Counted from the first letter of the stretch, positions 6,001 to 21,301 are shown. The stretch is DNA of 64,000 bases from Candidatus Geocrenenecus sp. JGI 0000106-J15 (GCA_000405685.1 ASPF01000012.1:14326-78325), one strand, 5' to 3'. Program-made: numbers and translations. Notes: generated by a model not told the origin, from the letters alone.

Positions 6001-6540
6001 CAAGTACCACTAGAAGCAGCTGGAAGAGGAGTATCGTACGATGTATCAGTAGTACGTGAAGGATTCACAGTCCACAGTAAACCAGAGACAGTAAGCAGAT
6101 CAAAGACAACGATAACAGTGATAGGCGAGCTATTCAGCCTCAAAGTCCGTGTAGTAGGAGCAGCAGGCCAAGGATTACCATTCGCCAAAGTAGTAGTAAA
6201 GAGAGCAGGAGCAGAGATAGGAACATTCACAACAGATGCAGGCGGATTCCTAGAGATATCTAAGCTACCATTAAGCGACTACACAGTAGAAGCTGAATGG
6301 AAAGGCTTCAGAGGAGAAGCAGCAGCAACCCGCGACGACTTGATGGCTGGAAGAGCAGTAGAGATCAGCCTACCACCATACATGGAGATAGCTGGAGTAC
6401 CATTCACATTCGCAGCATTCCTAGGACTAATAATAGGACTAATAATCCTCGTCGTCGTACTAGTAATAATCTTAACAGAATACGCCCGCTGGCGTGGAAG
6501 AAGACTAGGAATCTACCCACCACCTCCACCTAAAAAGTAA
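1..6540 (+). CDS. Giant cell-surface (S-layer-like) protein, 5'-partial. It has beta-rich Thr/Tyr/Trp-rich repeats, several carboxypeptidase-regulatory-like (CarboxypepD_reg) beta-sandwich modules near the C-terminus, a C-terminal TM helix and a PPPPPKK tail.
   Basis: The ORF track gives 37..6540 (2167 aa), but the frame is open back to nt 1 with no upstream stop, so the gene continues beyond the window. Repeated modules include VTVRVTDFNGRPLAGAFVQLWD, VSVVDRKGEPIAGATVKFG and LKVRVVGAAGQGLPFAKVVV. The C-terminal hydrophobic stretch is LIIGLIILVVVLVIIL, followed by a basic/Pro tail. A T-rich tract follows the stop codon. Confidence 0.75.
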   Translation, partial: VADLYFDYWGYDMVVFLENGTVLGNVTYIYIDDAIATVKFHEVLGNDYYLYAYSEYYALVADIDVDGRDDFSGFDDFYVGGYYGGPVEVEIFWQFATPRILVSGTDYYVDLGVVEFDNLYRPILVSGGIDYIEIYTNYGGLEFDVDSGDIEWDGVSGMTPDSGTAPGVWWAYFYTGIKKALIKPAAGMDDYADFDEDNEVQFEFDPELTTIELELDHATWEDDVTGTHRDFTGIVSLTRIDYGYFYGMIVPLSDDYPASDFALLKTGTVFVTADVHDIQFTVTDNLGNPLPAGQTEVQLILPNGEVVARRPGDIPDQFIGNLAWSYKLFGEGNVVFFQLPGSTGPYGIRVLYTGTEVYYDRDVIDVLEVTEFVTIVVKVYKVKVVFEDCQGQLMPGLYYKFTLPNGRTDWDRTTKEGEVDFPYMAGGTLTIHSVWWKGVELPLMEAKFATGEKIELVDGKLVLEIGEGIDAPIVVKVPIKDLIFYTMDFQGEIKIPRLNVTLTWMGTPKPWSTEKIYFLETLDPTGDANTELYNTSIQVHPLWFNYTVKAFFQKIADDSPMDGMTEWEAKYVFYKMPPTIYNITVTTVTDVETYGEEPVDGVGGTTPGTSKWPGRRDVETPYEIKIDWAGWSEDYEDTIPTIRTGPADEVNDRVVLRIFGSMDGVPVTTENFPEWLVEAWNPELIGIRTALVCKEEIKLKTWAHDFWKSVIDGDYRVGDASFKIENDNGFEMIYYDLVEEKWIGNTYTSKWTEDIKDISAIMKDSHYTSNIYWNGSYILKDLYFETNMTYSYSKEKNASFIVDKFYNASMTSDATPGADGFWSPNKVDPTLNFTLVGTENLWKTDRRFSAWVKRIKGETWKDWYDAWFLVYELPRDTDEYKVAKGLDGKGILPIPIPVAFIKLGAFAKGGEPLNKALIELWTLHMDVENTVKISAADEGTDTFYYYIPDEVVARVPVEVSWRWEKKLVETNEPQIYDLKRWDRVWLTFTTYTLREYVCEIPEITAYGVNLTNTLRDTRLAVVPCEEGQIEVWLHFVGHSGDDVTYTVELRWNGDLIAATTEVLDVTLGGEIWVAGIKVEIYDIHTSSDFGVWAEADVTISGSYTIRAPTTEVLESRTIFVQVPPSPAKLILRNVLEETGIDVAVSADYVYPLITAYPRDNNPVVTDLWGEEDGVLSYGRWYTEADGYVDSFKDLGVADPRYGSVILPIAGWLNETFHDGIAATEDEFHYQLNIVWKSAVVYSDNIVLDKKGYVTGPSDVYTVTFYLALSNSTKAPVKGLNAWIYYMNVTEWHLADLWYADDVVAPGVYPEEIYPPQDYEACEDSIIPCELRVTLASELWPDGKKTFELIPGPRFMNTTWKYVFSANHTAIDWMDDLVATQFVLNNETFGDNGLRVKTTTRIDVPIMLNAARWVVFEVATWRDEAGVPTAYPMKDYIVKYEIRKPKYETGPALTATSGTATTDAEGKVVITSDPSDPKKVFWAGMVIRYRVEPPAYTSDYSDAFWGSWLKTKEVDFVDKKADYRAPAIAPIMSHAYYPDEEPTHYAIAKIETTWVPREEGGWWCSGLCVHEHRSKPFIVWVDYTAVTVRVTDFNGRPLAGAFVQLWDKASGKLAAWHYTAATEWEALPLDVAGMIAWHGLDPATDSVKIPFQTKPRTFGGAGFTGVMNVTLGPVAFDTNNDDRVDFNLAHRGIPGYTDTSFITYIARAFWLATDKTPTAATGTLVAVWPYMPEKAQKVYDSEEDEVTWKLLLPRHVAGAAYRPGMAAYYPQVLDSSRYAVTGSLVKEHRDVYAAVFDIKMRFSYEGKPLAEIAKDLVVTFEKAYDVLTFTGKDIVDIKMLPRGTYTVIAKYKGIEVARRTLDLSAVNVGTVTADIPLAMRDVSLQVVDMFGRPLPDAKVSISPESFAGYSNVGGIITIRAIVTTQTYEFTVSWASATYGKEASVIIADTPDGLAARKTIELPVGDVVVSVVDRKGEPIAGATVKFGPVEKTTDADGKAYFEQVPLEAAGRGVSYDVSVVREGFTVHSKPETVSRSKTTITVIGELFSLKVRVVGAAGQGLPFAKVVVKRAGAEIGTFTTDAGGFLEISKLPLSDYTVEAEWKGFRGEAAATRDDLMAGRAVEISLPPYMEIAGVPFTFAAFLGLIIGLIILVVVLVIILTEYARWRGRRLGIYPPPPPKK

Positions 6541-6786: not shown

Positions 6787-7333
6787 ATGGGAGAACATTT
6801 AAGCGAACTAACTGATGACTGGCCAGAGGTCGTAAAAATCGCAGAAAAGTTAAGTCTAGGTGAGAAGCTGGATAGAAAAGATGAAACGTGGATAAATGAG
6901 CTAACAGAAACAACTGGATGGGACAGAGATGATATTATCGACGAGTTTAAAAACATAAATGTAGATCCTTCTAAAAGAGCTGAAAAGTATAAACAACTTC
7001 ACGAAGAATATTTTAGAGAAGCTAAGAAGTTCAAAGAAGAAGGTGACAATAAACAGGCAGGAGAAAAGCTGTGGGGAGCCGTAACAGCATTAATAAAGCT
7101 CTATACAGCAATCAAAGGCATCCCCATACTACATTGGAGCAGAGGAAGGCTGGAGAAATTTATAACAAATAATGTTGAGGAGAACTATAAACCGTTATTT
7201 AGAGACCTACTCGATAAAAACACAGGTTTTCCATGAATACTTCTATGAAGCACATCTAGACGATAAAGCATTTGAAGAAAGATGGGAGGAAGCAGTAAAA
7301 CTTCTCGAGAAAGCAAAAGAACACGTCAAGTAG
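6787..7333 (+). pseudogene. PaREP1-family (HEPN-like) protein with an apparent frameshift at an A5 run (~7216-7220). ORF 6787..7236 continues in the +1 frame to 7333.
   Basis: The N-terminal part reads ...GEKLWGAVTALIKLY...HWSRGRLEKFI.... The shifted frame reads FHEYFYEAHLDDKAFEERWEEAVKLLEKAKEHVK, which matches the conserved C-terminal HxxFYE core of PaREP1 proteins. Removing one A at 7216-7220 restores a single ~181-aa reading frame. Confidence 0.5.
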
Positions 7334-7373
7334 TATTTATATTCAGCTTGAAAATACGTATCTAATAGCTAAC

Positions 7374-7616
7374 TTGGCAGCAAATACTCCAAGAAAAATT
7401 AGAGAAGAGATAAGAACATCAAAAATAGATCTATCTGAAATAATTAGAGAAGCTTTAGAAAGCAAGGTCAAGAAGAAAATAGAAAAACTATTAAGAGAAC
7501 TAGAAAATATGAAGAATCTTCAAACACAGCCAGACGAAACAGTTAAACTGATTAGAGAGAGAGCCGAGATGAAAGGTAGACTACTTGATTCATCAGCTTT
7601 AATCAACTGTGTCTGA
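7374..7616 (+). CDS. Putative VapB-like antitoxin ORF (80 aa). Its last 15 codons are in frame with, and identical to, the start of the downstream PIN toxin.
   Basis: Small charged helical protein immediately upstream of, and overlapping, the PIN-domain gene. Same reading frame as the toxin. Confidence 0.35.
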   Translation: MAANTPRKIREEIRTSKIDLSEIIREALESKVKKKIEKLLRELENMKNLQTQPDETVKLIRERAEMKGRLLDSSALINCV

Positions 7617-7952
7617 CTAGGAAGGGCTGCAAAGATACTCGGCGAGTATACAATAGAACTAGTAAAATTTGAAGTAGGAAACTACGTCTGGAAAAGACGT
7701 AGCAGCCTAAGTTATAAAGAAAGCAAGAATCTGCTTGAGAAACTTTTAGAACTAATAAACTTAATGAATATTCTTCATGTTGACTTTCTAGAAGCACTAT
7801 CTATAGCAGTAGAAGAAAACATAACATTCCATGATTCATACTACATTCAAGCAGCAATCCAGAATAATCTAGAATTAGTAACTGACGATCCTAAACTTTA
7901 TAACGTAGCCCGAAAATATGTCGAGGTCTTAAGAAGCCAAGACATCAAATAA
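7569..7952 (+). pseudogene. vapC: vapC (PIN-domain toxin) interrupted by an in-frame TGA at 7614-7616.
   Basis: ATG at 7569 gives MKGRLLDSSALINCV, the conserved PIN N-terminus with the first catalytic Asp. TGA follows at 7614-7616. The same frame then continues without any stop: LGRAAKILGEYTIELVKF...MNILHVDF...HDSYYIQAAI...LVTDDPKLY (ORF 7764..7952). All four PIN acidic positions are present. Total length would be 127 aa. Confidence 0.6.
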
Positions 7953-8026
7953 AAATACTAAAAACAACTTCTAAGACCTCAGGTTGCTAGAAACTTAAGA
8001 AGCTATAGCTAGATATAGCTAAGAAT

Positions 8027-8371
8027 CTACAACCTTATCCTTACCCCTTTCTCTAAAGCTTCCGTTACGATAGTCTTTCTACCATAAAACTTCTTCAACT
8101 CCTCTTCTGTATATGGAAACATCTCAAGACTGAAAGACCCATCCCACAGCATACTTAAAATAATCATATTCTCGATAAAGCTATGCTTCTTAAACTCTTC
8201 TGAGACAACTATCATATCCAAGTCACTATCTATCAATGGTGTACCAGAAACTCTTGAACCAAAAAGATAAACTTCAGAAACATTTAGAACCTTCTTCAAC
8301 CTTCTTAGAAAAGATGCTAACGCTCTCTTCTGCTTCTTCGACAGCTTTACATTATCCAATTCTCTAATCAA
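8027..8371 (-). CDS. Minimal nucleotidyltransferase (MNT), partner of the upstream HEPN gene.
   Basis: LFGSRVSGTPLIDSDLDMIVV carries the GS...DxD motif. Overlaps the HEPN gene by 4 nt. Confidence 0.75.
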   Translation of the reverse strand: MIRELDNVKLSKKQKRALASFLRRLKKVLNVSEVYLFGSRVSGTPLIDSDLDMIVVSEEFKKHSFIENMIILSMLWDGSFSLEMFPYTEEELKKFYGRKTIVTEALEKGVRIRL

Positions 8372-8778
8372 GGCAGACCACCAACTTTCCTAGCCCAGTC
8401 AACAACTTTACAAGCTGCCCCAATACATCTCTCAACAATCTCTCTACTATATGCTTCACTAGGAACAGTATTTGCAGCATTAGGATACCTGGCTATAGTA
8501 TAATGTGGGTTAAGTATCTTCAGCTCATCCAATATTTCATCAGCCTCAACAACCCTCCCAAGCTTTAATAAATCATGACCCCTCGGAGGTAAACGATGTT
8601 TCCTCACTATGTATAATGCTTTCAATGCTTTCTCAGCAGCTTGATGGCATAAGAAAGCTGCAATACTATACTCTTCAATCTCGAGATTCTTCTTCGCCTG
8701 CCTCAAATTATGTAGAGACTCCCTCCACCAGTAGAGGGCTTCTTCTCTTATCTCTCCACCTTCCATCCCTAGAACCAC
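8368..8778 (-). CDS. HEPN-domain protein (toxin component of a HEPN/MNT module).
   Basis: HEPN Rx4-6H-type motif HYTIARYPNAA. Size 136 aa. Operonic with the MNT gene. Confidence 0.7.
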   Translation of the reverse strand: MVLGMEGGEIREEALYWWRESLHNLRQAKKNLEIEEYSIAAFLCHQAAEKALKALYIVRKHRLPPRGHDLLKLGRVVEADEILDELKILNPHYTIARYPNAANTVPSEAYSREIVERCIGAACKVVDWARKVGGLP

Positions 8779-9190
8779 TCTACATAATTATACTTAAGAC
8801 TTTACCAGTTTTCAACCAACCGAGTCTAAAAATCCTATAGAGAATCTCCTTGATGCTTCAGACTAAGATCTGCCAAGACTTCATAGAGAAGGATCTCAAG
8901 CCGATGGAGAAAATTTACCAGATCTGGCCTTAGTTCTTATAATTCCTCCCCTCTATATCTATAAACTAGAATATAGCGCATAAACATGAATTCTCAGATT
9001 AATCAAGCTGAATCTATTGACATTACACTTGGCTTTACCAACATATTCCATACAATCTCTATACTTGGATATTCTCCTAAGATTTTAATCACGCAACAAT
9101 AGACTTCCACTGACATACACCAACTCCACAAAACCCATAAAAAATTAAAAACAGTTTAGAGATGACTAGAATAGTTGATATTAGAGATTC

Positions 9191-9300
9191 GCGGCGGGAG
9201 GGATTTGAACCCTCGAGGCCTGTAAAAGGCCACGGGCTTACTTATCTATCTCCATTAGATCTCAAGGCCCGCCCCTTAGTCCTGGCTTGGGTACCGCCGC
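9191..9300 (-). tRNA. Intron-containing class II tRNA, most likely tRNA-Ser(UGA). 110 nt including a ~22-nt intron in the anticodon loop.
   Basis: Minus-strand read: GCGGCGG TA CCCA(D-arm with GG)...anticodon stem CGGGC / loop CUUGAG + intron / GCCCG. Variable arm is a 5-bp stem GGCCU/AGGCC. T-arm is GAGGG-TTCAAAT-CCCTC. Acceptor 3' strand is CCGCCGC and the discriminator is G. The long variable arm plus G73 favour Ser. The alternative reading with anticodon GAG (Leu) requires a G:U-containing anticodon stem and an A73 that is not present. Confidence 0.6.
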
Positions 9301-9492
9301 TCTCCTATTCAACGATCTTGTAGCAGTCTTATTTATGCAATGTTCTGTAATATTTATTATTCTCTTTACAATCTAGGAAAAGGGTATCCTGCAATTTATA
9401 CATCTCCCACAAATGAAACATTCAATCAGACTTTCCTATTGAAAGTTTAGCACTAAGGTTTAGGGATCCCTAGGCGTCCACTGATCTAACTC

Positions 9493-10500
9493 TTATGCTT
9501 TCATCTGATTTAACTTAATTCTTAACTGGTCTAATTCTCTTCTTATAGCTTCTTCATGGAACTCCATGAACCATTCCTGACCCCTAGATATATCCCACAG
9601 CCTACTTATCAACGATATACTATTCTCCAGATGTTTTATTATTCCTCCAGGCTCATATCCTGTCCCAGTGTAGAGTATCTTCTGACGAGCTGACCAATCT
9701 CCAGGCTGGTCTGCACCAGGAATAAACTCTGAAGCATACTTCTCAAGAATCTCGTAATCCGTTACTCCTCCAAGCTTTCTAATCTCTCTATACTCTGAGT
9801 AGTAGCTCTCATCTGGACCATATAATGGCATATCATACATGTTATAGCATAGAGCAGTAATATCTCCAAGAGCTATAAAGTATATCTTCTTGAAGCCTAA
9901 ATCTAATGCTATTTTTTCAACAACCCTCATACCATACTCAGAGATAAATCCATAAACTATCAGCTCTCTAAGCTTTGAATTCTTCTTCTCAGCCTCCTCG
10001 TAGATCTTCTTGAGAGCCATCTCAGCCGTCCTACCACTCGCCTCCGTATCAGGCTTAACTACAACCAAGTCTCTACATTCTGGAATCATTGAAAAATCTT
10101 GATAAACTACTTCAATCTCCTTCATAGATTCTTCATCATGAGACCTATAAGATGGCAGCCTATATCTCGGTCTAATCCACACCTCCCTAAAATCTATACC
10201 CGACCTTCTTAAAGCTTCATGGAGACAATAACCTGGAGCAGCCCTTAAAACATGCTCAAAAACTATCTCATCCCTCTCCAACTCACCTATCGATGTTAAT
10301 TCCATCAAAGCCTTCGCAGCATCAAGAGCTACCATACCCATATATCCTATTAACTCATCACCAACTATATGGGGATGACATGCTACACTTCTAACCTCAG
10401 GAGAATCCAAGATGTAAACATCTGAACTTGACTGCAACCCCTCAACCTTGTATATCTTCGTACTCTTTCTAAGACCTTGCAGTTCAACTTCTTCTGTCAA
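9493..10500 (-). CDS. Divergent type-I phosphoribosyltransferase (uracil-PRTase-like) protein with N- and C-terminal extensions.
   Basis: Three motifs recall uracil phosphoribosyltransferase (UPRT): IVGDELIGYMGM (compare ILRAGLGM), LVVVKPDTEASGRT (compare LIVDPMLATGGS, the PRPP loop), and EFIPGADQPGDW (compare IIPGLGDAGD). At 335 aa it is far longer than canonical UPRT (~210 aa). Confidence 0.35.
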   Translation of the reverse strand: MTEEVELQGLRKSTKIYKVEGLQSSSDVYILDSPEVRSVACHPHIVGDELIGYMGMVALDAAKALMELTSIGELERDEIVFEHVLRAAPGYCLHEALRRSGIDFREVWIRPRYRLPSYRSHDEESMKEIEVVYQDFSMIPECRDLVVVKPDTEASGRTAEMALKKIYEEAEKKNSKLRELIVYGFISEYGMRVVEKIALDLGFKKIYFIALGDITALCYNMYDMPLYGPDESYYSEYREIRKLGGVTDYEILEKYASEFIPGADQPGDWSARQKILYTGTGYEPGGIIKHLENSISLISRLWDISRGQEWFMEFHEEAIRRELDQLRIKLNQMKA

Positions 10501-10743
10501 TCCAACCCTAATATTGAAAGCCTCGATCAGCAGATCTATAATTGATTGACTAATTACTCGAGGCAGTTAAAGCCCATCCATTAAATGTAAAAGCTGGTTA
10601 TTAAGAATTCTCAATCCTTCCTCACCACTTAGAAGCCTTATGTATTTAGCACGAAGTAGCCTGGCCAGAGAGATATTAAGACTATAACCTAACATCTTCC
10701 GATGAAACTTTAATGTATAGCTTATACAATAGCTATAGAGAGG

Positions 10744-11136
10744 ATGAGCTACGAACGTTGGAGAGACTGGCTTGACGAAGCAAGAGACGACTTCATCTCA
10801 GCTGAGATACTTCTAAAAGAAGGTAGATATAGTAAGGTCTGTTTCTTATCACAGCAAGCAGCAGAGAAAGCCATTAAAGCACTCTTAATATTCAAGTTCA
10901 AGAAATTTGAAACAATACATAGTGTGGCAGAATTGCTTAGGAGAGCTGAAGCCTCAGAAGAACTGATCAAGCTTGGGCTAGAACTCGATAGACACTATAT
11001 TACTTCGAGATACCCAAATGTATGGCCTCTAGGCGCACCCTCAAAAATGTATAGAGAAGAAGATGCTGTCTCAGCAGTAAATGCAGCTAGGAGGATAATA
11101 GAATATGTTGAGAGAGAGATTAAAACTAGTTATTGA
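10744..11136 (+). CDS. HEPN-domain protein.
   Basis: HEPN motif region ...RHYITSRYPNVW. Overlaps the downstream MNT gene. Confidence 0.7.
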   Translation: MSYERWRDWLDEARDDFISAEILLKEGRYSKVCFLSQQAAEKAIKALLIFKFKKFETIHSVAELLRRAEASEELIKLGLELDRHYITSRYPNVWPLGAPSKMYREEDAVSAVNAARRIIEYVEREIKTSY

Positions 11137-11476
11137 GAAGAACCCTCCACTCAGAGAACTTGAAGATGACTTGTTAGGCCTAGTCTCATCAATAGATTCT
11201 GAAGACACCCTCATAATAGTCATAGCAGGCTCCGTTGCAGAAGGCAGATACGTCTCAGGAATAAGCGATATCGACATCCTCGTTATAAAGAAGGAAGGAC
11301 CGCCAACCTCTAGAATAACGTCTATTAAGGATATTGATGTTGAAATAACATCTCTAGGGCTAAACGACGTCCTAGAAGCTTTAAAGTCTAGAAACTACTC
11401 CATCTCCCAAGCATTGGATAAAGGCATATACCTGAAAGGTGAAGAAAACAAGAAGATAGTCTTTAACCTTGTTTAA
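11105..11476 (+). CDS. Minimal nucleotidyltransferase (MNT), partner of the HEPN gene.
   Basis: IVIAGSVAEGRYVSGISDIDILVI carries the GS...DxD motif. Confidence 0.7.
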   Translation: MLRERLKLVIEKNPPLRELEDDLLGLVSSIDSEDTLIIVIAGSVAEGRYVSGISDIDILVIKKEGPPTSRITSIKDIDVEITSLGLNDVLEALKSRNYSISQALDKGIYLKGEENKKIVFNLV

Positions 11477-11522
11477 CATTGTATCTATATACGTATCCGC
11501 ATAGACCAGTTCCAAAACACTT

Positions 11523-12869
11523 CTATTCTTCTCTAAGTATCTTGTCTATATTATCTCTTACTGGCAGGTATATCTTCTCATAGAATTCTCTCTGGCTTTT
11601 TATCGTTTCAAGAGGGAACCGCTGAATATATCTTAACGCTGCCTCCCAATACTTCTGGAACGTTTTCTGACCGCCAAATCTCTGTACAACCTGTCGATCA
11701 AAATCTCTAGGAGTCTGCTCTTGCCCACCTATCATGTACCATCTTCCAGGAACCCTGTAAACTACTTCATCTCCAACTACTTCTTCTAGCTCGCTTATCT
11801 TCTGCTCTCTGCTCGGCAATGGCTTACTTAACAGCTTTCTCTGACCAATCCCCCTCTTCTTAGCCCATGCATAAAAGATTGCTCTATTCAGCCCGAAAGA
11901 CTTGGCCTGCTCTATATCACCCCTTAGTACATAGTATCTTGCTGCTTGCATTAAAGCCATCACCTGGAATCTTCCTGTAGACAAAGGCTGGCTAGCCGAT
12001 CCTAACTCTGGAGACTTATCTCCTCTTAACTCTTCTCCTATAACTGTCCGGGCAATAGACTCTACCCTCACCTCTTTCATCGCCTTCTCCACAAGACCAT
12101 CTAACTCTCCTTCAATGTATTGATCCCATTCTCTCCAGTATCTGAATCTATCTAGCTCCGTCCATTCTAAGCTAAAGTTTTCTATCTCATCTGGATCTAT
12201 AGTTATAGCTACTATGTCTAGCTCTCTATGAATGCTTAGAGGTGAAGTAAATACTCTCTGTACATCTATTATATTCTCTATCTTCAGCTTCTTCTCATAC
12301 GATTTAGACTTAGCAGCTATCTCTGATAGTTTACTCCTTACTTGCTTGAGTATGTATTCTACTATTGTGTGAGCTGTCTTCACTGGGTTAGGTCTCCAGT
12401 AGCTTTCACTAATTGCTTTCTCATTCAAATGTATATGGACCCCTCTCCCCGACCATACAAGGTATAACGACTTCTCTACGCCATGCCGATGCAACCCCTC
12501 AAGCATCATTTTTACAGCTTCTATGGTTAAGTCTATTTCTTCCAGGTTTCCATCTATATCTATGCTTGGTGTCGCTCTAGATATATTCTCTACCCTCTCT
12601 AAATCCTCCCTCGATAATATCCTATTATAGATGTTGATAGTTCCATATATTGTTCGGATATTCCTATCACTAAACCTGTTTATCATCTTTTTTACATCAG
12701 CCGGCTCATTTATCGTTAATGGCTTCTCATCAAAGTATCTATAAAATATTCTCTTACCATGCATTGGCCTAGCCTCTAGAGCTACCCATCTACCTCTACA
12801 GAACTTAGCAACTTCCTCTTGCACTTCTTTTCTAAGATAATGTCTTAAGACTGCAGGCTCGGTCTCCAT
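11523..12869 (-). CDS. Archaeo-eukaryotic primase (AEP) superfamily protein, PriS-like (primase small subunit / prim-pol), 448 aa, with no Zn-knuckle.
   Basis: All three AEP/PriS catalytic motifs are present: SIDIDGN (DxD), YLVWSGRGVHIHL (SGxGxH), and IIDVQRVFTSPLSIHREL (D..R..R.P.SxH). The N-terminal region is collinear with PriS (RHYLRKE...FYRYF...RTIYGT). No Cys cluster was found. Confidence 0.6.
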   Translation of the reverse strand: METEPAVLRHYLRKEVQEEVAKFCRGRWVALEARPMHGKRIFYRYFDEKPLTINEPADVKKMINRFSDRNIRTIYGTINIYNRILSREDLERVENISRATPSIDIDGNLEEIDLTIEAVKMMLEGLHRHGVEKSLYLVWSGRGVHIHLNEKAISESYWRPNPVKTAHTIVEYILKQVRSKLSEIAAKSKSYEKKLKIENIIDVQRVFTSPLSIHRELDIVAITIDPDEIENFSLEWTELDRFRYWREWDQYIEGELDGLVEKAMKEVRVESIARTVIGEELRGDKSPELGSASQPLSTGRFQVMALMQAARYYVLRGDIEQAKSFGLNRAIFYAWAKKRGIGQRKLLSKPLPSREQKISELEEVVGDEVVYRVPGRWYMIGGQEQTPRDFDRQVVQRFGGQKTFQKYWEAALRYIQRFPLETIKSQREFYEKIYLPVRDNIDKILREE

Positions 12870-13542
12870 CTACATCCAACATTGTATATAGTGCGGGTTT
12901 CATTTATCTTAATCTAGTAAATCATGTCATGTGTAACAGAGATATTCCCAAAATCAATAGCCTCGTAGTATGCGATCAATTTTTCTGTTAGAAAAACTAT
13001 TTAACAACCACGCCCGCATCAATAACTATTCTACGTTTACTCCCTGTTCTTCTCTTACCCATCTTATAATCTCCTCCGTAGATAATCTCTCGACTCTTCA
13101 ACGGAACTCGTCCAACTTTCTCATAGCATTTTTAGCAACCCCATCTTAATCTCTTAGATTCTATAACCTCTAAGATACTCTCCAGTCAACGTTGACTTTT
13201 CTCATTAATTTCTTTAATTCTTCTGGGACTTTTATGGGCACGTTTACAAGCCCCTCGTTAGCTCATCATAATAGTAATATAAATTGAGATTGTCATATAA
13301 GGGTTGATTGGAGCCTTACTTACCTAATAATATGAGTCTCACATCTATGAACTTGTCTCTGCTTATTGAATAACTAAGGCAACTATAAGATAAGAGACTC
13401 CAGTTTTCTTAGCTAACATATAGTTGAATTGTTCTTCAAGCAGAGACCCTCTAGAGCATATACATATAAGTCTTCAACATCGTCTTCTTCTGTGAAAAAC
13501 ATTTACTTTCATATCTCCTGGAAGAATACATTTTTAGATTTA

Positions 13543-13908
13543 CTAAAGTTGAATGTAGAGTAAAGCCGTGTATTCTTCTAATTTCTCAGTCAACGGGTTT
13601 ACGCGTAGCTGCATTGCTTCAAGAGTTATCACTCCAAGCAAGACCCTGTCAATACTCCTACTCACCAGGATAGGCAGTATTCTCCTCTTCCCATTAACTT
13701 CAATGATAGCATGCGTCAATTCAAGCTCATCATAGCCTCTCGCCGTCAAGACTTTCACCCTCTCACCTGTCACTGGAAGATTAAGCTCTCTTGCAATATC
13801 TTCAGGTATAACTGTGAATGTCGAACCTGTATCTACCAAGGCTTTTACTCGGATAATTTTGTCTCCCCTTAAATCCCCAATCTTAACTTCAGTCTCTACG
13901 TGCCCCAA
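13543..13908 (-). CDS. Retropepsin-like (clan AA) aspartic protease, 121 aa.
   Basis: ALVDTGSTFTVIPEDIA carries the DTGS active-site motif and the hydrophobic-Gly flap region. Typical single-domain length. Confidence 0.65.
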   Translation of the reverse strand: MGHVETEVKIGDLRGDKIIRVKALVDTGSTFTVIPEDIARELNLPVTGERVKVLTARGYDELELTHAIIEVNGKRRILPILVSRSIDRVLLGVITLEAMQLRVNPLTEKLEEYTALLYIQL

Positions 13909-14241
13909 CCTAGTCTCTCTTCAACTATTTTTCTAAAACGGATATAAATATTACTTTGACATCCATACCTATTTCCTTTGAACATATGACTAGTATATTA
14001 GGTGTGAGTAAGGATCGAGCAGACACATTGAGATGTTAGGTAGCAGGGGATGGACATTACCTCTTAATCTTTCTCCTACTTTATCTTCTTGGTCGTCTTC
14101 TCAGCCTCGATTCACCCTTCTTAAAATCTAGAAGTATTGCGCCGAGCATACTTACAACGTAATCTCTTACCGCGACTTCCTCTATGTAAGGGTTAACAAT
14201 AATATTTACTTTGACTTCTAATGGCTCCCTATCCTCTAAGA

Positions 14242-14469
14242 TTAATTCAGCTCTCCAACAGATATGTAGTATGGTGTGATTATCTCCCCTCCACCTGTCT
14301 CCAATAGGGTGCCCATGGTTGATCTAGGAGGCCATAGGTGGAGCTTCTCAGCTATACTTACTGGGATTACAATGTCTAGCTGGTCTGACTCGAAAACACT
14401 ATTTAACAACGCTGAAGTCTCAATCACGTCATCTTCTATTCTAATCGTTACTTTTACTCTACAGACCAT
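14242..14469 (-). pseudogene. Truncated, catalytically dead paralog of the adjacent retropepsin-like protease (75 aa).
   Basis: VKVTIRIEDDVIETSALLNSVFESDQLDIVIPVSIAEKL aligns to the DTG region of the two intact paralogs, but DTG(S/A) is replaced by NSVF. It is about half the normal length. Confidence 0.35.
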
Positions 14470-15363
14470 TGCTACTCACTTTATCACTAATTTCTTCTTC
14501 ATGTATCCAAGCTTTCTAACAATCATCTTTTTCAATGTAAATTCTCTCAATATTCTAATATCTTTCTCCCTGCTTTTCATCACAATCTATTCTGTAAAAA
14601 AGGGTATAATCGGTTATTAATGTTTTCTCAACTTTGAAAGATTACTGAAGGTAGTGTTAGAAATGATTTCTAGAGCCTCGATATATTAAGTATCAGATCT
14701 TGATTAAAAGTAATTGTCGATCAAGGTTGGATTAATATAGATAGAGATAAAAGATCTGAGAGAAGGACAGAATAGGTTATGGGAGGACGCCAACAAAACT
14801 ATGAGAGGAGGTTGGAGATTGGGCGAAGGGTAGGGTATACTAGACTGTGGGAGGAGGTTAGACGACTTAGGCTAGACTATAGCCGTCTTACCATAAACTT
14901 TAGGGGCTTCAGAAACTATGTGTCTAGAGCCTTCGTCGAACTTAAATCTGACCTCTGTGTAATATTCAAGATGCAATCTGCAGCATACATAAAACTACTC
15001 ATAGAAAAGCCATAGAGACAAACATATTCTGTGAAGAGCCATTAATCGTAGGAGAAGTCACTATAACAGTAAAAGATGAAGACGAAGCCCAGCTTGAGAT
15101 AGAGAAGTAATTGAGAAGGATCGAGGCCAAGAACCTTATATAGAAAAGAACCTCTACTCAAGGTACTGTCAGTAGTTAATGCAGTTCCAGCGGTTGCAAA
15201 TAAGCTCCAAGAAGAGGCAGGGAAGTATGACATAAAATTTATTCTAGGAGAAGAGATAGTTGAAGCATAGTATATCATGATTAGAAGGGTTTGGGAAACT
15301 TACGTTATCAACTTTCTAAATCAACTTGAAACTGTATAGAAAGAAGAATGTTTTCAACCATTA

Positions 15364-16071
15364 CTATATCTTATCAGATAGACTGAGTTTACTTAGTTCT
15401 CCTGCTAGCTCTTCATCATTTGCTATCTTTAGGCCTGTCCAAAGATCTTCATCAAGTTTTATACTCTTTTCTGAAAGGATAATCTCAACATTGTTGAGAA
15501 CCTCTTCGAGCTTACTAGGAGGTAGGGTATGCAGAGACGTCTTGAGCCTATAATCTAACATGTAGATAAGCTCCATACCTAAAGCCGCTAGGAATGGCTC
15601 AAACTCCCGGTCAAAGATTATACCACGAGTTATGTATCCATCACGATACTTTGAGATTATTTTGTAAAGTAGCTTCCTGACGTCTCTTCTAAACAATAAC
15701 TTATCCTTAAAGTATACTGGAACATCTCCATCATCCTCTATAGATATGTTGAGACCCTCCTCACATATCTCCTCAATGATAGCCTTTAGCTCTCCAGGCA
15801 TCTTCTCTAGCACTTCACCATAATCACCTACACATTCATGGGAGAAGTCGCCCTTCCTAATCCATCTAACCTCGATATTATGACTGTAGACAAACCTAAC
15901 CTCATAGCCTAGACTCCATAGCTTCCTAACAAAATATGATTCAGCAACTAAACCAATAATATTCTGCCCATCGCTGTTCCCATACTTGTGGAAGAAGCCT
16001 TCAGGGAACGCAGAGCCTATTCGGACACCATTAACACTTACCTCAATGATATCTAGCCACAACCCTGACAA
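15364..16071 (-). CDS. Hypothetical protein (235 aa); possible PD-(D/E)xK nuclease-like N-terminal region.
   Basis: Long ORF with coding-like composition. GLVAESYFVRKLWSLGYEV is reminiscent of restriction-endonuclease-fold cores. No firm family assignment. Confidence 0.3.
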   Translation of the reverse strand: MSGLWLDIIEVSVNGVRIGSAFPEGFFHKYGNSDGQNIIGLVAESYFVRKLWSLGYEVRFVYSHNIEVRWIRKGDFSHECVGDYGEVLEKMPGELKAIIEEICEEGLNISIEDDGDVPVYFKDKLLFRRDVRKLLYKIISKYRDGYITRGIIFDREFEPFLAALGMELIYMLDYRLKTSLHTLPPSKLEEVLNNVEIILSEKSIKLDEDLWTGLKIANDEELAGELSKLSLSDKI

Positions 16072-16552
16072 AACAATTAAACTAACTAGCTATAATACGT
16101 TTACTTTAGCTTAGTAATTCATAGCCTTAAGTTAGATGCAATTTTAATAGGATACGAATTCATTCACTGGGCTGTCCTGCTGTAGCTTCTTCAGCTGGCT
16201 TCTCCTGAACTTCCTCAGCCTTCTTCTTCGACCTGCATCCTGAACCTTTCTTGCGAGGCACGTCTCTCAGAAAGACTATGAGAAACCTTAGGATAAATTC
16301 ATTCTGCCAGACGATATAGTAAATTACTTAATAGAATACTCTAACGATAATACCGACCTTTGGATTTAAAACATCGAATGGGCGGATAGCTCACTAAATA
16401 TATACTAAATTTCTCAAAAAGCTTCTAAATAGCTCATTTCCATGATATGCATCCCTGCCACCATCTGGAAGATTAATGGATGGCATATACTTGTAGCTTA
16501 GGCTAGTAAAGTGATGAAGCCAGGTCATGACAACCATTATAGCATCGGATAT

Positions 16553-17517
16553 TCATGAGGTTACTCTGAGAAAGGTAGATTGTGGTAGGCGGGTGGGGAT
16601 TAAGTGAAGGTTGAATATGGGTATTCCGATTGTTGGTAATGCATATCTTTCATCCAGTAGCATACCACATTTATCGCATGCTATAGCATTCGGCTCATTG
16701 ATCGATTGGCATCCAGGGCATATCTTAGGCTTCAGGGTCTGATCTTTCTCTTCTCTTTTAGGTGGGAGGCCATAGTATTCAAGGATTGATGAATCTATAT
16801 CTAACCCAGCTAGTCTTACATAGTGTTCCGCCATCTTTGATCCTGCAGTCCATCCAGCGAATGCTTTAAGCTGGTGTTCTCTTAGAACGTTGGCTAACTC
16901 TGTTAATTGACTATGCCTAAAAATGTAAGGATATATCCGCTTGTTTATTCCAGCCTTCCTCGATATTCTCTGACTAAACCTGTTAAGCCAACCTCTGTAA
17001 GTTCTTCATTTCCTCTCCTAGTCTTGCTCCAGTATCATAGAACATTGCGATGAGGCATTTATCCCTTGTATTATCTGCATAGTCAATGAACTTTAAGAAT
17101 CCCTCTTTAGTCAGGATATCTTTAGGCGACTTTACTGGAAGCTCTTTCTTACGGATAGTTATAGAGATGTTTTCGACGATCTTAGGATATGGCCCCTCCC
17201 TCCAGCCATCGTTTAGAAGCCATCTATAGAAGGCTTTGATTCGAGTAGCATGTGGAGCCCTCGTATGAGGCTTCCGATTCGTGAGAAAAGCTAGTACATT
17301 CTGCTCTCTAGCCTTCCTAAAATCTCTACCTTTGAGATGCTTGTCTAAGGCCGATAAGACTAAAGCATAACTTCTCTGCTAATCCTCACTATACCCTTGA
17401 CCTTCTAGGAAAGCTAGAAAATCATGGATAACCTGTTTATCCTCAGGGTTTAGGTATTCTGCATTATGAAAGCGATAGTATCCCCTCTCAAGCTTCTCAG
17501 ACTCTAATTCATCTGAG
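16553..17517 (-). pseudogene. int: Decayed tyrosine recombinase (phage-type integrase): N-terminal SAM-like domain, box I, box II and the catalytic Tyr are all recognisable, but the gene is interrupted by an in-frame TAG, a TAA followed by a frameshift, and lacks a start codon. The C-terminal piece carries an extra Zn-ribbon.
   Basis: Minus-strand translation from ~17517: FSDELESEKLERGYYRFHNAEYLNPEDKQVIHDFLAFLEGQGYSED-TAG-QRSYALVLSALDKHLKGRDF...RIKAFYRWLLNDGW...LIAMFYDTGARLGEEMKNLQRLA-TAA. A frame change follows into ...INKRIYPYIFRHSQLTELANVLREHQLKAFAGWTAGSKMAEHYVRLAGLD... (ORF 16553..16834), ending with CPGC...CDKC. The motifs are TGxRxxE, HxxRHS and E-H-Y-V-R (the catalytic Tyr). Confidence 0.55.
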
Positions 17518-17787
17518 AATTATTTAAGTGAAATGATCTCAATCAAATGTGTTGGTTCAGCGCTCAAAAGACTTTGAAATAGAGAATAGACACTATTCAG
17601 GGAACATTAACCAGATGGATATAGAATTATTCTACTAGTGCGTATGCATACTGGTAAGTCACTAAATTCATAACTAGGGTGGTAGAGAAGAAATCTTACA
17701 TTTTTAGCTAGGCACGTGAGACCTGAAGGCGCCGCGAAGTCATTAATTAACTTCTACTAGTTTAGTTGTATACAAGCAGGGGTTGGG

Positions 17788-18258
17788 CTACTTGAGAGGT
17801 ACACTGATGCCAGGAGCAAATGGCTGCCCCTGGTTACATCGAACATCTCGCCCATATACTATAATATATGGGATTCGAGTTGCCCCAACCCCTGCTCTTC
17901 CATGTTTTACTTGTCTGTTCGTTAATGCGAATTCTCCCAGCCTATGACCTATCATTTCTGGTCTAATTTCTACTGGCACATATTCTTTACCATTATATAC
18001 ATGTATTGTCAGTCCAACCATTTCTGGAATTATTACCATGTCTCTTGCATGTGTTTTTAAAGGTTTCTTTGGTTTTTCCCCTAATTTAGTTAGTGTTTTA
18101 TATTCTTTGATTTTTTCAAGTAGTTTAAGTTGTGCATGTGTTAATCCTCTTTCTAAGCTTCTCCTAGCTCTACTTGGTAGCAGCTTGATTACCTGGTCCA
18201 TGCTCATCTGTTGTAGCTGTTCTAATGTATATCCTCTGTAAGTGAATTCTCTTGGCAT
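17788..18258 (-). CDS. rps19: 30S ribosomal protein uS19 (S19P).
   Basis: [19 protein letters not shown]...[44 protein letters not shown]...[10 protein letters not shown] is canonical uS19. The true start is the ATG at 18256-18258; the ORF-track N-terminal extension is spurious. Confidence 0.9.
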
Positions 18259-18280
18259 GCATAGAAGAATATTTAGGCAG

Positions 18281-18294
18281 GATATAAATTTGAC
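18281..18294 (-). promoter_or_regulatory. TATA-box-like element (TTTATATC on the minus strand) ~25 nt upstream of the rps19 start codon, implying a leaderless independent transcript.
   Basis: Plus-strand gatataaatttgac at 18281-18294. The spacing is typical for crenarchaeal leaderless mRNAs. Confidence 0.4.
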
Positions 18295-19015
18295 CTGTTT
18301 AGCCCCCAATTTAACGATTAGACTTTATTTCATAGTCTAAGGTTTAAGGTAAAATCTCCTATATGAGGATAAGGATGGTCGAGTTGACTAAACTCCATGT
18401 CTAACGTACATGAGTCATAAGTTAAACATCCTTGACAAAATCTTCTTGCCCATATATTTTATGATCTTCTAAGGTGAGTATGAATAATGAACTATTATTT
18501 TATTACTTCTTCTGCTAAGCATATTTCTTTTCTAGAACCGTTTAGCCAGTAAGTATTCTATAACTTCTCCATAACCTCCTAAGAAGCTCACTAAATAGGA
18601 AGTTATTATAGAAGTCTGACGTAAGCATTATAAACCCTTCATAGCCTGTTTTAATAGGAGCTTTCACTTTATTTAGAATCTTCTCACCGCGAATATTGTT
18701 GAGTGAAATTTGTATTAGAGGTGAAGGATTCCTCATACCTTTAAGGTTTTTCATACACTCTATGGTTCTATGGATCCTCCTAGATCATTTATTCAGAGAG
18801 GACATAATTTAACATTTTTATGAATTTCAGGCATTATCATAAGTTTTTGTGGCTAAGGATTCAAGAGTTAAGTAACTCATGAGGCATGACATCCTTTTAC
18901 ATGTATTTCTTAGTCAAATCTGAGTTTAATTAGACTGCTTTGCACAACTATATACATCAATGTTTTAAAAACAAATTAACTACATTCTTCAAGAGATTTT
19001 AAGTGACTTGGTATA

Positions 19016-20311
19016 ATGAGTAAGTCTATTCAAGTCTCTCTATCTATTGATGAGTTACCAAAATACTGGTATAACATTCTACCCGACTTACCTGGAAAGC
19101 TTCCAGAACCGTTAAATGAAGATGGAAGGTTGGAGAAATTAAAAGATATTTTAATTCCAGAATGCCTAAGACAGGAGTTTTCAAATGAGCGTTGGGTGAA
19201 GATCCCTGAAGAGATAAGAGAGTTGTATATCCGTGCTGGAAGACCTAGACCTCTACATAGAGCAGTAGGTTTAGAGAAGATGCTAAAGACACCTGCCCGT
19301 CTATATTACAAGAGGGAAGATCTTTCTCCAACTGGAAGCCATAAAGTGAATACTGCTATTGCACAAGTCTACTATGCTGCTGAAGGTGGATACAGCCGTG
19401 TAGTAACTGAGACAGGTGCAGGTCAATGGGGGACAGCAGTAGCATATGCAGCATCATTAATGGGTCTAAAATCTACAATCTACTGGGTGAGAGAAGCATA
19501 TGAGTGGAAGCCTGAGAGAAGAAGATTCATGAAGCTCTATGGTGCAGAAGTGCTTGCTTCACCATCAGATAGAACAGAGTTTGGAAGAAAGATGCTTAAA
19601 AACGACCCAGACCATAAAGGAACCCTTGGTATAGCTATCTCTGAAGCAGCTGAAGACGCTTTAAAACATCCTGATACAATATATCCTGTAGGAAGTGTAT
19701 TGAACTACGTACTTATGCATCAGACGGTCATAGGGTTAGAAGTTGTAAAACAGCTAGAGATCATTGATGAAGTTCCAGACATTATGATTGGATGCCTTGG
19801 AGGTGGCAGCAACTTCGGTGGGCTCACATTACCTATGATTGGAAAAGTTCTTAGAAAAGAAGTAGACAAGAAGATCAGGTTTTTAGCAGCCCAATCAGAA
19901 GCTGCACCTAATCTTGTTAAAGGAGTCTACCAATATGATTTTCCCGATACTGCACAGATTCTACCGAAGATCAAAGGATACACTTTAACTCATAGCTTCG
20001 TCATGCCTCCTATATGGGCTGAGGGTCTCAGATACCACATGGCCTCGCCGATAATAAGCTACCTAAAGAATATAGGGTTGGTTGAAGCAGTTGCCCACCC
20101 TAAAGATGAGAAAGCAGTATTCGAAGCAGCTAGAATGTTTATCCAAGCTGAAGGATTCCTACCTGCTCCAGAGTCATCGTATGCTATCAGAGCGATGATT
20201 GACGAAGCAGTTAAAGCAAAAGAAACAGGTGAAGAAAAAGTAATAATTGCAAATATAAGTGGACATGGATTCTTAGACCTTGAAGCATATAGCCGAGTAT
20301 TGAACATATAA
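19016..20311 (+). CDS. trpB2: Tryptophan synthase beta chain-like PLP enzyme (TrpB2 type).
   Basis: ...SPTGSHKVNTAIAQVYYAAEGG... contains the PLP-lysine motif. Size 431 aa, typical of stand-alone TrpB2. Confidence 0.75.
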   Translation: MSKSIQVSLSIDELPKYWYNILPDLPGKLPEPLNEDGRLEKLKDILIPECLRQEFSNERWVKIPEEIRELYIRAGRPRPLHRAVGLEKMLKTPARLYYKREDLSPTGSHKVNTAIAQVYYAAEGGYSRVVTETGAGQWGTAVAYAASLMGLKSTIYWVREAYEWKPERRRFMKLYGAEVLASPSDRTEFGRKMLKNDPDHKGTLGIAISEAAEDALKHPDTIYPVGSVLNYVLMHQTVIGLEVVKQLEIIDEVPDIMIGCLGGGSNFGGLTLPMIGKVLRKEVDKKIRFLAAQSEAAPNLVKGVYQYDFPDTAQILPKIKGYTLTHSFVMPPIWAEGLRYHMASPIISYLKNIGLVEAVAHPKDEKAVFEAARMFIQAEGFLPAPESSYAIRAMIDEAVKAKETGEEKVIIANISGHGFLDLEAYSRVLNI

Positions 20312-20370
20312 TCTTAGATTCTCTAAAGCTAGGGAAAAATAGTCGAATGCTTCATTTAAAATATATTATA

Positions 20371-21090
20371 TTACCTCTTCCTTCGGCCCGTTCTCTTAGC
20401 TGATATCAATCCAACTTTTCTTCCAGGAGGTGCAGTTCTAGAAACTGTTTCAGGCCGTCCTAGTTTCTTTCTAGTTCCACCGAATGGATGGAACGCTGGA
20501 ACCATAGCTACACCACGTGTCCTTGGGTAAGGTCTATGCTTAGCCTTCATCCAGTGATGTTTCTTCCCAGCTTTGAGGAATGGTTTATCATGTAATCCTC
20601 CTCCAGCTACAGTTCCAACAACCGCTAAAGATTTAGAACTTAACTCAGCCATCTTCTTAGAAGGCATCAATAATATAGTCTTGTCGCCAACCTGAGACAT
20701 TACAGTAGCATATGTTCCAGGAGCTCTAACAAGCTTTCCCCCATCACCAGGCTTTAACTCGATCATCGAGACTATAGTTCCTTCTGGTGCTTTTCCTAAA
20801 GGAATTATATTTCCAGGCTTAATAGATGCTTCAGCACCCATCTCTATAATCTGCCCGACATGTAATCCTTCAACAGCTGCTACACTGAATGTTCTACCAT
20901 CTTCAAGAACGATCTCTGCGACTGGTGCACCTCTACCAGAGTCATGATGAAGCTCTTTCACATATCCTAAGACTAGGTTACTCGATCCAATAACCATGGA
21001 TGGATAACCTAGAGTAGACCTCCTCTTAAGAGAGGCCTTGAAAGTCGGCGACCCCCTACCAATCCTCTGAGCCCTAATCCTCCTACCCAT
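20371..21090 (-). CDS. rpl2: 50S ribosomal protein uL2 (L2P).
   Basis: MGRRIRAQRIGRGSPTFKA...HHDSGRGAPVAEI...GGGLHDKPFLKAGKKHHWMKAKHRPYPRTRGVAMVP..HPFGGT is canonical archaeal uL2. Confidence 0.9.
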   Translation of the reverse strand: MGRRIRAQRIGRGSPTFKASLKRRSTLGYPSMVIGSSNLVLGYVKELHHDSGRGAPVAEIVLEDGRTFSVAAVEGLHVGQIIEMGAEASIKPGNIIPLGKAPEGTIVSMIELKPGDGGKLVRAPGTYATVMSQVGDKTILLMPSKKMAELSSKSLAVVGTVAGGGLHDKPFLKAGKKHHWMKAKHRPYPRTRGVAMVPAFHPFGGTRKKLGRPETVSRTAPPGRKVGLISAKRTGRRKR

Positions 21091-21301
21091 TCACCAACCC
21101 ACTTTACAAGATTCAATATATCTTCTCAATATTAACATTAACGTAAAGCGATCAGCTGGAAAGTTAATATCTCTCCAGGTACTTTAAAAGAGTAGCTAAT
21201 ACATCGTAAAAAATCATCTACCGATAATTGAGCAGAGAAGTAGTAAGTTCTCTTAAAAATCTTTAAATAAACAGTTCTACAATACCTTCTTTAGAAAATA
21301 G

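Follow-up and report, generated by a model that had tools for sequence, protein, structure and literature searches.

The stretch analysed here, 64,000 nt of Candidatus Geocrenenecus sp. JGI 0000106-J15 (ASPF01000012.1:14326-78325; 'the window' throughout), carries the remnant of a tyrosine integrase gene on the minus strand beside rps19 and, about 7 kb away, an intron-containing tRNA-Ser gene. Candidatus Geocrenenecus is a Caldarchaeales lineage (PMC9246946), and the host of the window is a Geocrenenecus-like member of this group. The original prediction took the integrase and the tRNA gene as the two ends of one decayed element at 9.2-17.5 kb, with a primase, HEPN/MNT pairs, a PRTase-like protein and retropepsin-like proteases between them. 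We found that the integrase is indeed a real, multiply inactivated pseudogene of an integrated mobile element and that the foreign DNA in the window amounts to 949 bp only. Intact relatives of this gene point to the probable attachment (att) site of such elements, the 3' end of a gene for a C/D-box small RNA (sRNA).

According to the limits of homology, the relic occupies 17571..16623 and comprises an element end, a leader and the integrase pseudogene; the predicted remnant was thus confirmed in place and strand, with a corrected extent. Its left junction lies 216 nt from the stop codon of rps19 (S19; 17788..18309, minus strand; PF00203), a gene that is collinear in related loci (L003, L010, L014, L020) and is context only. 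Six-frame translation of 17800..16380 on the minus strand showed the remnant to be split over three frames. As a reference for the lesions we used the nearest intact gene, which encodes the 455-amino-acid (aa) protein P0001 (locus L006, 300-1667) and is 84% identical at the nucleotide level.

The TTG start codon of the intact homologue (L006 position 300), which had been thought missing, is retained at 17491..17489. After codon 13 a 1-nt deletion that lies in no homopolymer shifts the frame (17454/17453; AATACACTAAAC versus AATAC-CTAAAC in the alignment to L006), which places the N-terminal sequence formerly read as FSDELESEKLERGYYRFHNAEY out of frame. The in-frame TAG that had been noticed is a TAC>TAG substitution at 17381..17379, a position at which nine of ten close homologues have Tyr (alignment A1). 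The principal lesion, overlooked when frame breaks were correctly placed near 17000, is a 190-bp internal deletion at 17027/17026 (L006 766-955) between imperfect repeats of ~22 nt. As a result ~64 codons that separate the two boxes I and II are gone, among them that of the Lys in the beta-hairpin GKTG, and the frame is shifted. A second 1-nt deletion (16974/16973) returns to the original frame, the reading frame across the lesions being 0 > 2 > 1 > 0. At 16622..16623 the integrase is cut after codon 354 of 455 and fused to host DNA; its last 102 codons are lost, and the tail PIFNLHLIPTRLPQSTFLRVTS of the open reading frame (ORF) is read-through into host sequence. The missing start codon, the box I motif YDTGARLGE (which spans the 190-bp deletion junction) and the sequence EEMKNLQRLA (read out of frame) had all been reported because translation ran across these lesions.

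The reconstructed protein still matched PF00589 (29.1 bits), a SAM-like N-terminal domain and, weakly, the double-zinc-ribbon family DZR. Box II (IFRHS), the Trp and the catalytic Tyr (EHYVR) are all present as described. In terms of the catalytic residues the relic retains R(II), W and Y, the Tyr codon (AEHYVRL; 16822..16820) corresponding to the invariant Y288 of alignment A5; the Lys is deleted and R(I) sits on the deletion junction. The Zn ribbon CPGC-x10-CDKC is also kept (16720..16667). Nothing in the relic can function.

Could the integrase be intact in the organism and the lesions stem from errors made when a genome was assembled from a metagenome? The source does appear to be a metagenome-assembled contig, and a large number of related contigs end shortly before the integrase on its upstream side, which shows population heterogeneity at this point. 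Against such an artefact stand five independent lesions of differing kinds. None of the indels sits in a homopolymer, and the decay is therefore real, as had been argued from the sequence before. Moreover, the identities at the junctions (8 and 2 nt) are too short to mislead a k-mer assembler, and both flanks run on collinear with relatives. We consider an assembly or sequencing artefact extremely improbable.

The two ends of the relic were defined by comparison with loci that carry an intact integrase and with loci that carry none. Nucleotide homology to the intact-integrase loci L006 and L001 covers window positions 17567..17005 and 17026..16621. On the rps19 side, host homology stops at 17568 in six relatives (L010, L014, L017, L020, L021, L022) and at 17562 in L018, and it restarts at 16623 (L018) or 16617 (L010). 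Beyond the relic, 16103..16621 is host intergenic DNA outside the element; L018 and L010 are collinear with it, as are L014, L015 and L017 from 16400. At the right junction the parental sequences have only TA in common, a 2-nt microhomology as expected of an ordinary deletion end. In place of the relic the closest relative, L018 (94% flank identity), and L010 carry 3.7 kb with three genes for proteins of 390 aa, 217 aa and 279 aa, the last an HTH_Crp protein (L018 358-3384, L010 5645-8657). Decayed pieces of this segment survive in L014, L017 and L020-L022; the segment is thus an ancestral part of the host, since lost from the window. We also entertained the idea that the window had kept the integrase and L018 the cargo of one and the same element, and dropped it, as the 3.7-kb segment of L018 shares no cargo with the intact-integrase loci. 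The gap between S19 and the downstream gene p235 is a hot spot of change among the relatives, two of which contain a TnpB remnant (OrfB_IS605 / Cas12f TNB) in it (L014 6116-6685, L017 451-1020).

We then asked what becomes of the proposed element of 9.2-17.5 kb. Its tRNA anchor is a genuine gene: a tRNA-Ser(UGA) at 9190..9300 on the minus strand matched the Rfam covariance model with 39.7 bits and shows the anticodon loop CU-UGA-GA, an intron of 20-25 nt and a long variable arm. It was the sole tRNA in an Rfam scan of the whole window, and ARAGORN in default mode overlooked it and reported no tRNA there. A role as attachment site is excluded. No att-like copy of the tRNA gene was present anywhere in the window, the best matches to 9150-9340 being chance hits of 10-15 nt, and repeats derived from the junctions likewise gave only chance matches of 10-15 nt window-wide. 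In addition, between the tRNA-Ser and p235 (9130-16097) the window is collinear with relatives in which the integrase is missing. The 14.6-kb locus L020, which has no integrase, contains L2, TrpB, S19, p235, a coiled-coil remnant, both protease-like ORFs, PIN, AEP, MNT/HEPN, PRT and the tRNA-Ser region, and is collinear with window 21152..8426 at 80-93% nucleotide identity; the exception is the S19-p235 gap (window 17567..16098). Reference genomes scanned for the AEP-fold protein yielded contigs of G. arthurdayi (L002) and G. huangii (L003). The former has the gene order of the window (AEP, MNT/HEPN, PRT335, tRNA-Ser), and the latter reads TrpB, HEPN, S19, MNT/HEPN, AEP, PRT335, tRNA-Ser, again without an integrase. 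The block is covered as a whole in L020 and in parts in L002, L003, L014 and L018, with partial synteny in L010 as well, and the adjacency of PRT335 and tRNA-Ser is kept in L002 and L020.

Some observations do speak for a remnant provirus or integrative plasmid of 7-8 kb reaching from an att site in the tRNA-Ser to the integrase. Distant members of the integrase family adjoin tRNA genes, tRNA-Ser among them; the integrase is transcribed towards the tRNA side, as an attL-int-cargo order would predict; the GC content at third codon positions (GC3) of the block is slightly raised; and a Caldiarchaeum element is integrated at the 5' part of a tRNA-Ser gene (PMC6563490). However, a repeat of any part of the tRNA is missing from the window, and the RNA genes of family members end ~65-110 nt upstream of the integrase and not 7 kb downstream. 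Element homology stops at 16621, where host homology restarts, and the tRNA-to-p235 block exists in relatives without the integrase. The AEP and p235 families look vertically inherited, the p235 homologues forming a species-like gradient from 97% to 52% identity. We found no cargo common to window 12.9-17.8 kb and the intact-integrase loci, and GC content and codon usage showed only a weak shift that was out of step with the proposed ends. With the att repeat missing and the synteny conserved, the element is refuted in its proposed extent, cargo and tRNA anchor, and we regard a model of this kind as very unlikely. The tRNA-Ser, the AEP gene, HEPN/MNT, p235 and the retropepsin-like genes belong to the chromosome, where their order is conserved, and are not mobile cargo.

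The integrase itself belongs to a family of XerC/D-like tyrosine recombinases of ~450 aa within the PF00589 superfamily. A search of protein collections gave 21 relatives, the close ones 437-470 aa long, and a metagenome scan more than 472. In the intact homologues R157, K183, R256, W278 and Y288 are invariant (A5), and the PF00589 assignment is precomputed. In all relatives from the protein search, a short linker leads from the catalytic Tyr to a CxxC-x10-CxxC motif, and a helical tail of ~100 residues follows, the four cysteines (C322, C325, C336, C339) being nearly invariant in A5. Relatives of only 35% identity (L023-L025) have this ribbon as well. Hence the Zn ribbon reported for the window is real, and its description as unusual does not hold: ribbon and helical tail are a hallmark of a large archaeal integrase family. 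Distant relatives of the L023-L025 type sit at the ends of predicted tailed proviruses in IMG/VR, with matches to tape-measure, tail-tube and tail-collar proteins. The AlphaFold2 (AF2) model of P0001 (pLDDT 83.8) comprises the SAM-like domain, the catalytic domain, the ribbon (residues 320-342) and a long helix with a helical bundle (345-452). At probability 1.00, and within its first ~300 residues only, Foldseek matched this model to XerA, XerH, IntI4, Cre and lambda Int. P0001 was rejected as an XerA orthologue: it scored 98.7 bits against the NF040815 cut-off of 220, and XerA is expected to have ~280 aa and no extra domains, compared with 455 aa including Zn ribbon and helical tail in P0001. 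Literature searches, of incomplete coverage, gave no description of a Zn ribbon in archaeal tyrosine integrases.

Upstream of the integrase, all twelve close loci with upstream DNA (L001, L006, L007, L034, L036, L037, L039-L044; integrases 50-99% identical to P0001) share a conserved sequence of 57 nt that ends 63-75 nt before the start codon. L035 holds only its 3' half, the contig beginning inside it, and L045, with an N-terminally truncated integrase copy, has the same sequence ~100 nt upstream. The sequence contains C, D', C' and D boxes, two guides of 11-12 nt and a GGG/CCC terminal stem, and by this box, guide and stem layout it is a predicted archaeal C/D-box sRNA. In L041 (9883-9939) it reads GGG A AUGAUGA GUCUGACCAGG CUGA GCGCG AUGAUUG GGAUCUUGAGCG CUGA CCC; stretches of the sequence are ATGATGWGTCTGACCAGGCTGA...GATCTTGAGCGCTGA, and the complements of the guides are 5'-CGCUCAAGAUCC-3' and 5'-CCUGGUCAGAC-3'. 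The guides are unchanged save for 1-2 substitutions in three of the eleven attL loci (L043, L044, L007). Rfam aligned the snoPyro_CD model RF00095 end to end (1-58/58) with 31.9 bits (E 2.3e-5 in a 151-nt search), and more than 15 further archaeal C/D-box families gave weak matches at these coordinates.

The 3' part of the sRNA (TCNTGAGCGCTGACCCA..., 17-26 nt) recurs downstream as a direct repeat, and the 5' part does not. The repeats are 6.7 kb apart in L040, 7.7 kb in L041 (at 9924 and 17662) and 10 kb in L044; the att repeat lies 65-135 nt upstream of the integrase start, and the integrase is intact in each of these integrated elements. In L041, host genes stand on either side, NUDIX and others to the left and flavodoxin, an RNase Z-like gene and a THUMP methyltransferase to the right, and the integrase and four ORFs without a Pfam match lie between the repeats. 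The integrase would be expected to act on the sequence TCTTGAGCGCTGA. The simplest reading, and a probable one, is that the sRNA gene serves as the chromosomal attB of the closest subclade and that integration at its 3' end regenerates the gene. The predicted attachment site would overlap the 3' end of the sRNA, taking in 8 nt at the end of the D guide as well as the D box and the stem, with attL the rebuilt gene end and attR the repeat of 17-26 nt. More distant family members appear to do likewise with tRNA genes: of 74 such loci, 35 have a tRNA gene where the close ones have the sRNA. For the distant element in L008 we detected no convincing att repeat, and the att core was absent from IMG/VR. 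Literature searches, of incomplete coverage here too, did not return a description of C/D sRNA genes as att sites.

Two further observations concern this locus. Another C/D-box-like sequence (ATGATGTAAGAGTGTGATCTCTGATTTATGATGAGAGACGGACGGACTGA) lies ~158 nt upstream of a 36%-identical integrase in L099 (at 6187), which may represent a second, independent use of a C/D sRNA gene as attachment site. Genes for an RNase Z-like protein and a THUMP/UPF0020 methyltransferase lie upstream of the sRNA and integrase in L001 (7413-9361) and, inverted, downstream of attR in L041 (19096-20762), an arrangement that suggests an inversion ending at or near the attachment site.

The relic in the window retains the last 18 nt of the sRNA, D box included. 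This att arm, which forms the element end (17554..17571, minus strand), consists of the core TCTTTTGAGC (17571..17562) followed by GCTGAACC. It is the counterpart of the sRNA's 3' end: the final 8 nt of the D guide, then the D box CTGA (17560..17557) and the terminal stem. The attL/attR direct repeat of L040, L041 and L044 has its left edge at the same point as the left junction of the relic. Across this junction (marked by a slash) the window reads ...CAAAGTCTTTTGAGC / GCTGAACCAAC..., the empty site of L020 AGTCTTGAGC / CATG, the empty site of L018 AAAGTCTTTGAGC / CAATG and the integrase locus L006 GATCTTGAGC / GCTGAACC. Two empty sites, those of L020 and L010, contain the 8-bp core TCTTGAGC, as do the integrase loci L006 and L001; in the empty site of L018 it has one extra T (TCTTTGAGC). 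The pseudo-site sequence downstream of rps19 is AAAGTCTTGAGCCATGATTT. The window contains no second att copy.

We infer from these comparisons that the window very probably holds the solitary, dead relic of a small integrative element that entered a secondary site and was then deleted in large part. Integrase-mediated exchange would have taken place 216 nt downstream of rps19, at a site that shares with the attachment site only the 8-bp TCTTGAGC. One deletion, starting at codon 354 of the integrase, would then have removed the rest of the gene, the cargo and attR together with ~3.7 kb of the neighbouring host DNA, and small-scale decay (the 190-bp deletion, the two 1-nt deletions and the one nonsense substitution) would have come last. 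Thaumarchaeal att sites can be as short as 8 bp, and 15 of 68 integrated thaumarchaeal elements lie in intergenic DNA (PMC6563490, PMC8371274). Going further, we propose that a subclade of the Zn-ribbon archaeal integrases gave up tRNA genes as its chromosomal target in favour of the 3' end of a C/D-box sRNA gene and that the relic records a natural off-target integration, a proposal for which we see the balance as even.

Several points weigh against this reading. The window core has two extra T, and the 8-bp identity at the junction holds only if slippage of the T-run is allowed. A match of 8 bp might also guide a microhomology-mediated deletion in place of integrase exchange. The attR repeat is known for two independent elements only (L040/L041 and L044), and none was found within ~10 kb in L036 or L045. 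No empty attB, that is, an unoccupied sRNA gene, was seen among the loci, all of which were fetched via the integrase. The Rfam score of the sRNA (31.9 bits) is below the gathering score of 45, and its methylation-guide role is a predicted one. Finally, the genes of the block at 9.5-16 kb have a GC3 of ~0.37-0.43 versus ~0.25-0.36 in most other genes of the window.

A different account would make the sRNA part of the element, the left junction of the window then being a deletion of the true left end at an 8-bp microhomology. Among the loci examined the sRNA was met only beside integrases, and it occurs with two different host flanks, Alba-like (L001, L006) and NUDIX (L007, L041, L045); deletions at short microhomologies are also found elsewhere in the relic. 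On the other hand, attR duplicates the 3' part of the sRNA and not the 5' part, which therefore lies outside the repeat-bounded element, and the window junction matches the left repeat edge to the nucleotide. The RNase Z-like and THUMP methyltransferase genes are near the sRNA in both flank types, as expected of a host locus, and tRNA genes take the same position in distant family members. An element-borne sRNA also costs one extra deletion event. We judge this account unlikely and continue to favour integration at a secondary site, followed by deletion.

In several respects the elements of this family resemble the cryptic elements and proviruses of Thaumarchaeota and Aigarchaeota (Krupovic et al. 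2019, PMC6563490): they are small (here 6.7-10 kb) and carry the integrase at one end, their att sites are short (from 8 bp), they target RNA-gene 3' parts or intergenic DNA, their cargo is mostly ORFans, and distant relatives of the integrase are found on tailed proviruses. They differ in that the closest subclade sits beside a C/D-box sRNA gene and not a tRNA gene and in that the window copy is a relic only. That survey does not mention sRNA targets, and its only mention of 'zinc' concerns an unrelated provirus protein; a review of archaeal tyrosine recombinases (PMC8371274) mentions neither sRNA targets nor zinc. By layout only, the intact elements L041 and L044 are like the non-suicidal pNOB8 type (PMC8371274), with att outside the ORF and a gene that stays intact upon integration. 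In the suicidal SSV type attP lies inside the ORF, and integration splits the integrase, which does not happen here. We considered an SSV-type split for the window as well, the gene ending exactly at the host junction. Because att lies upstream of the ORF and the window holds no second integrase fragment (int(C)), the truncation is a secondary deletion and not an int(N)/int(C) split.

Compared with XerA, XerC and XerD (PDB 4a8e, 5hxy, 1a0p), the family has the same SAM-like N-terminal and catalytic domains with the invariant R, K, R, W and Y, and its similarity to XerA is clear in structure (Foldseek E 5e-11) and in sequence (phmmer 7.5e-14 to 4a8e). It differs from them by ~150 extra C-terminal residues (Zn ribbon and helical bundle), by a Tyr in place of the first His of HxxR (YIFRHS) and by being tied to mobile elements and not to dif. 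Bacterial phages and islands that target tmRNA ssrA or the 4.5S RNA gene ffs (PMC12540744) are similar in that the att core overlaps the 3' end of a non-tRNA RNA gene that is small and conserved, and the element brings a replacement 3' end. Here, by contrast, the hosts are Archaea and the candidate target is a C/D-box methylation guide RNA, identified from sequence only.

The scar in the window is ordinary. Modestly new are two features of the family, which has hundreds of archaeal members from metagenomes: its undescribed C-terminal module of Zn ribbon and helices, and the probable sRNA attachment site. The C/D-box guide RNA gene is likely to be a new kind of archaeal attachment site. If confirmed, it would extend the rule that integrases target stable RNA genes to genes for RNA-guided modification, and an sRNA followed by an integrase would be a simple marker for mobile elements in uncultured thermophilic archaea. 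If the off-target origin of the relic is true, the region of strand exchange would shrink to 8 bp of the D guide, TCTTGAGC. For the window, ~7 kb that resembled provirus cargo are conserved chromosome, which includes an uncharacterised AEP-fold protein.

This AEP-fold protein (448 aa; 11523-12869, minus strand) is what had been read as a PriS-like primase. The fold was borne out by comparison of its AF2 model (pLDDT 86.8), whose best PDB matches were Prim-PolC, LigD-pol and then PriS, and the DxD and SGxGxH motifs are invariant; the role as cargo was not, with more than 460 chromosomal homologues of ~450 aa in several archaeal classes (Nitrososphaerota, Methanomethylicia, Thermoproteota). In Geocrenenecus-like genomes the gene always lies beside that of a 335-aa protein without annotation (PRT335; 9493-10500, minus strand). 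Canonical PriS and PriL are encoded elsewhere in a relative, and the AEP-fold protein is therefore a second, uncharacterised chromosomal AEP. Neither it nor PRT335, p235 (15364-16071) or the 75-aa ORF asp75 gave any match in PHROGs, NCBIfam or Pfam, and PDB sequence searches with PRT335 and the AEP protein were empty. The label 'PRTase-like' accordingly found no backing in Pfam, NCBIfam or PDB sequence searches.

Of the two HEPN/MNT pairs placed between tRNA and integrase, one does lie there according to Pfam (10744-11476), and the other is on the far side of the tRNA-Ser (8027-8778). Similarly, domain searches supported one retropepsin-like protein (13543-13908), and the second 'protease', the 75-aa ORF at 14242-14469 on the minus strand, matched no family. 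This ORF has NSV where a DTG motif is expected; relatives annotate a 130-aa gene at its position, and the window copy may be degenerate or mis-started. The coiled-coil repeat protein at 21302-22114, which contains 21-nt/63-nt repeats of the LWEGQNKLWE type, has a paralogue of which a 78-aa ORF on the plus strand (14736-15015) is the remnant; the paralogue is longer in L014-L016 (221 + 108 aa).

Further afield, a small cluster of toxin-antitoxin-type genes lies 3' of the tRNA-Ser (6787-9189), made up of the HEPN/MNT pair at 8027-8778, a PIN fragment (7764-7952), an 80-aa ORF and PaREP1 (6787-7236). Its gene content varies among relatives and no tRNA repeat was found at its borders; in G. huangii, the orthologue of the HEPN/MNT pair is placed between S19 and the AEP gene. 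The first 6.5 kb of the window are filled by an ORF of 2167 aa on the plus strand (37-6540) with a GC content of 0.45, above that of the rest of the window. On the other side of the relic, a TrpB-like pyridoxal phosphate enzyme encoded on the opposite strand (19016-20311) parts rps19 from rpl2 (20371-21090), and this interruption of the ribosomal-protein cluster (17788-21090) is kept in all relatives examined.

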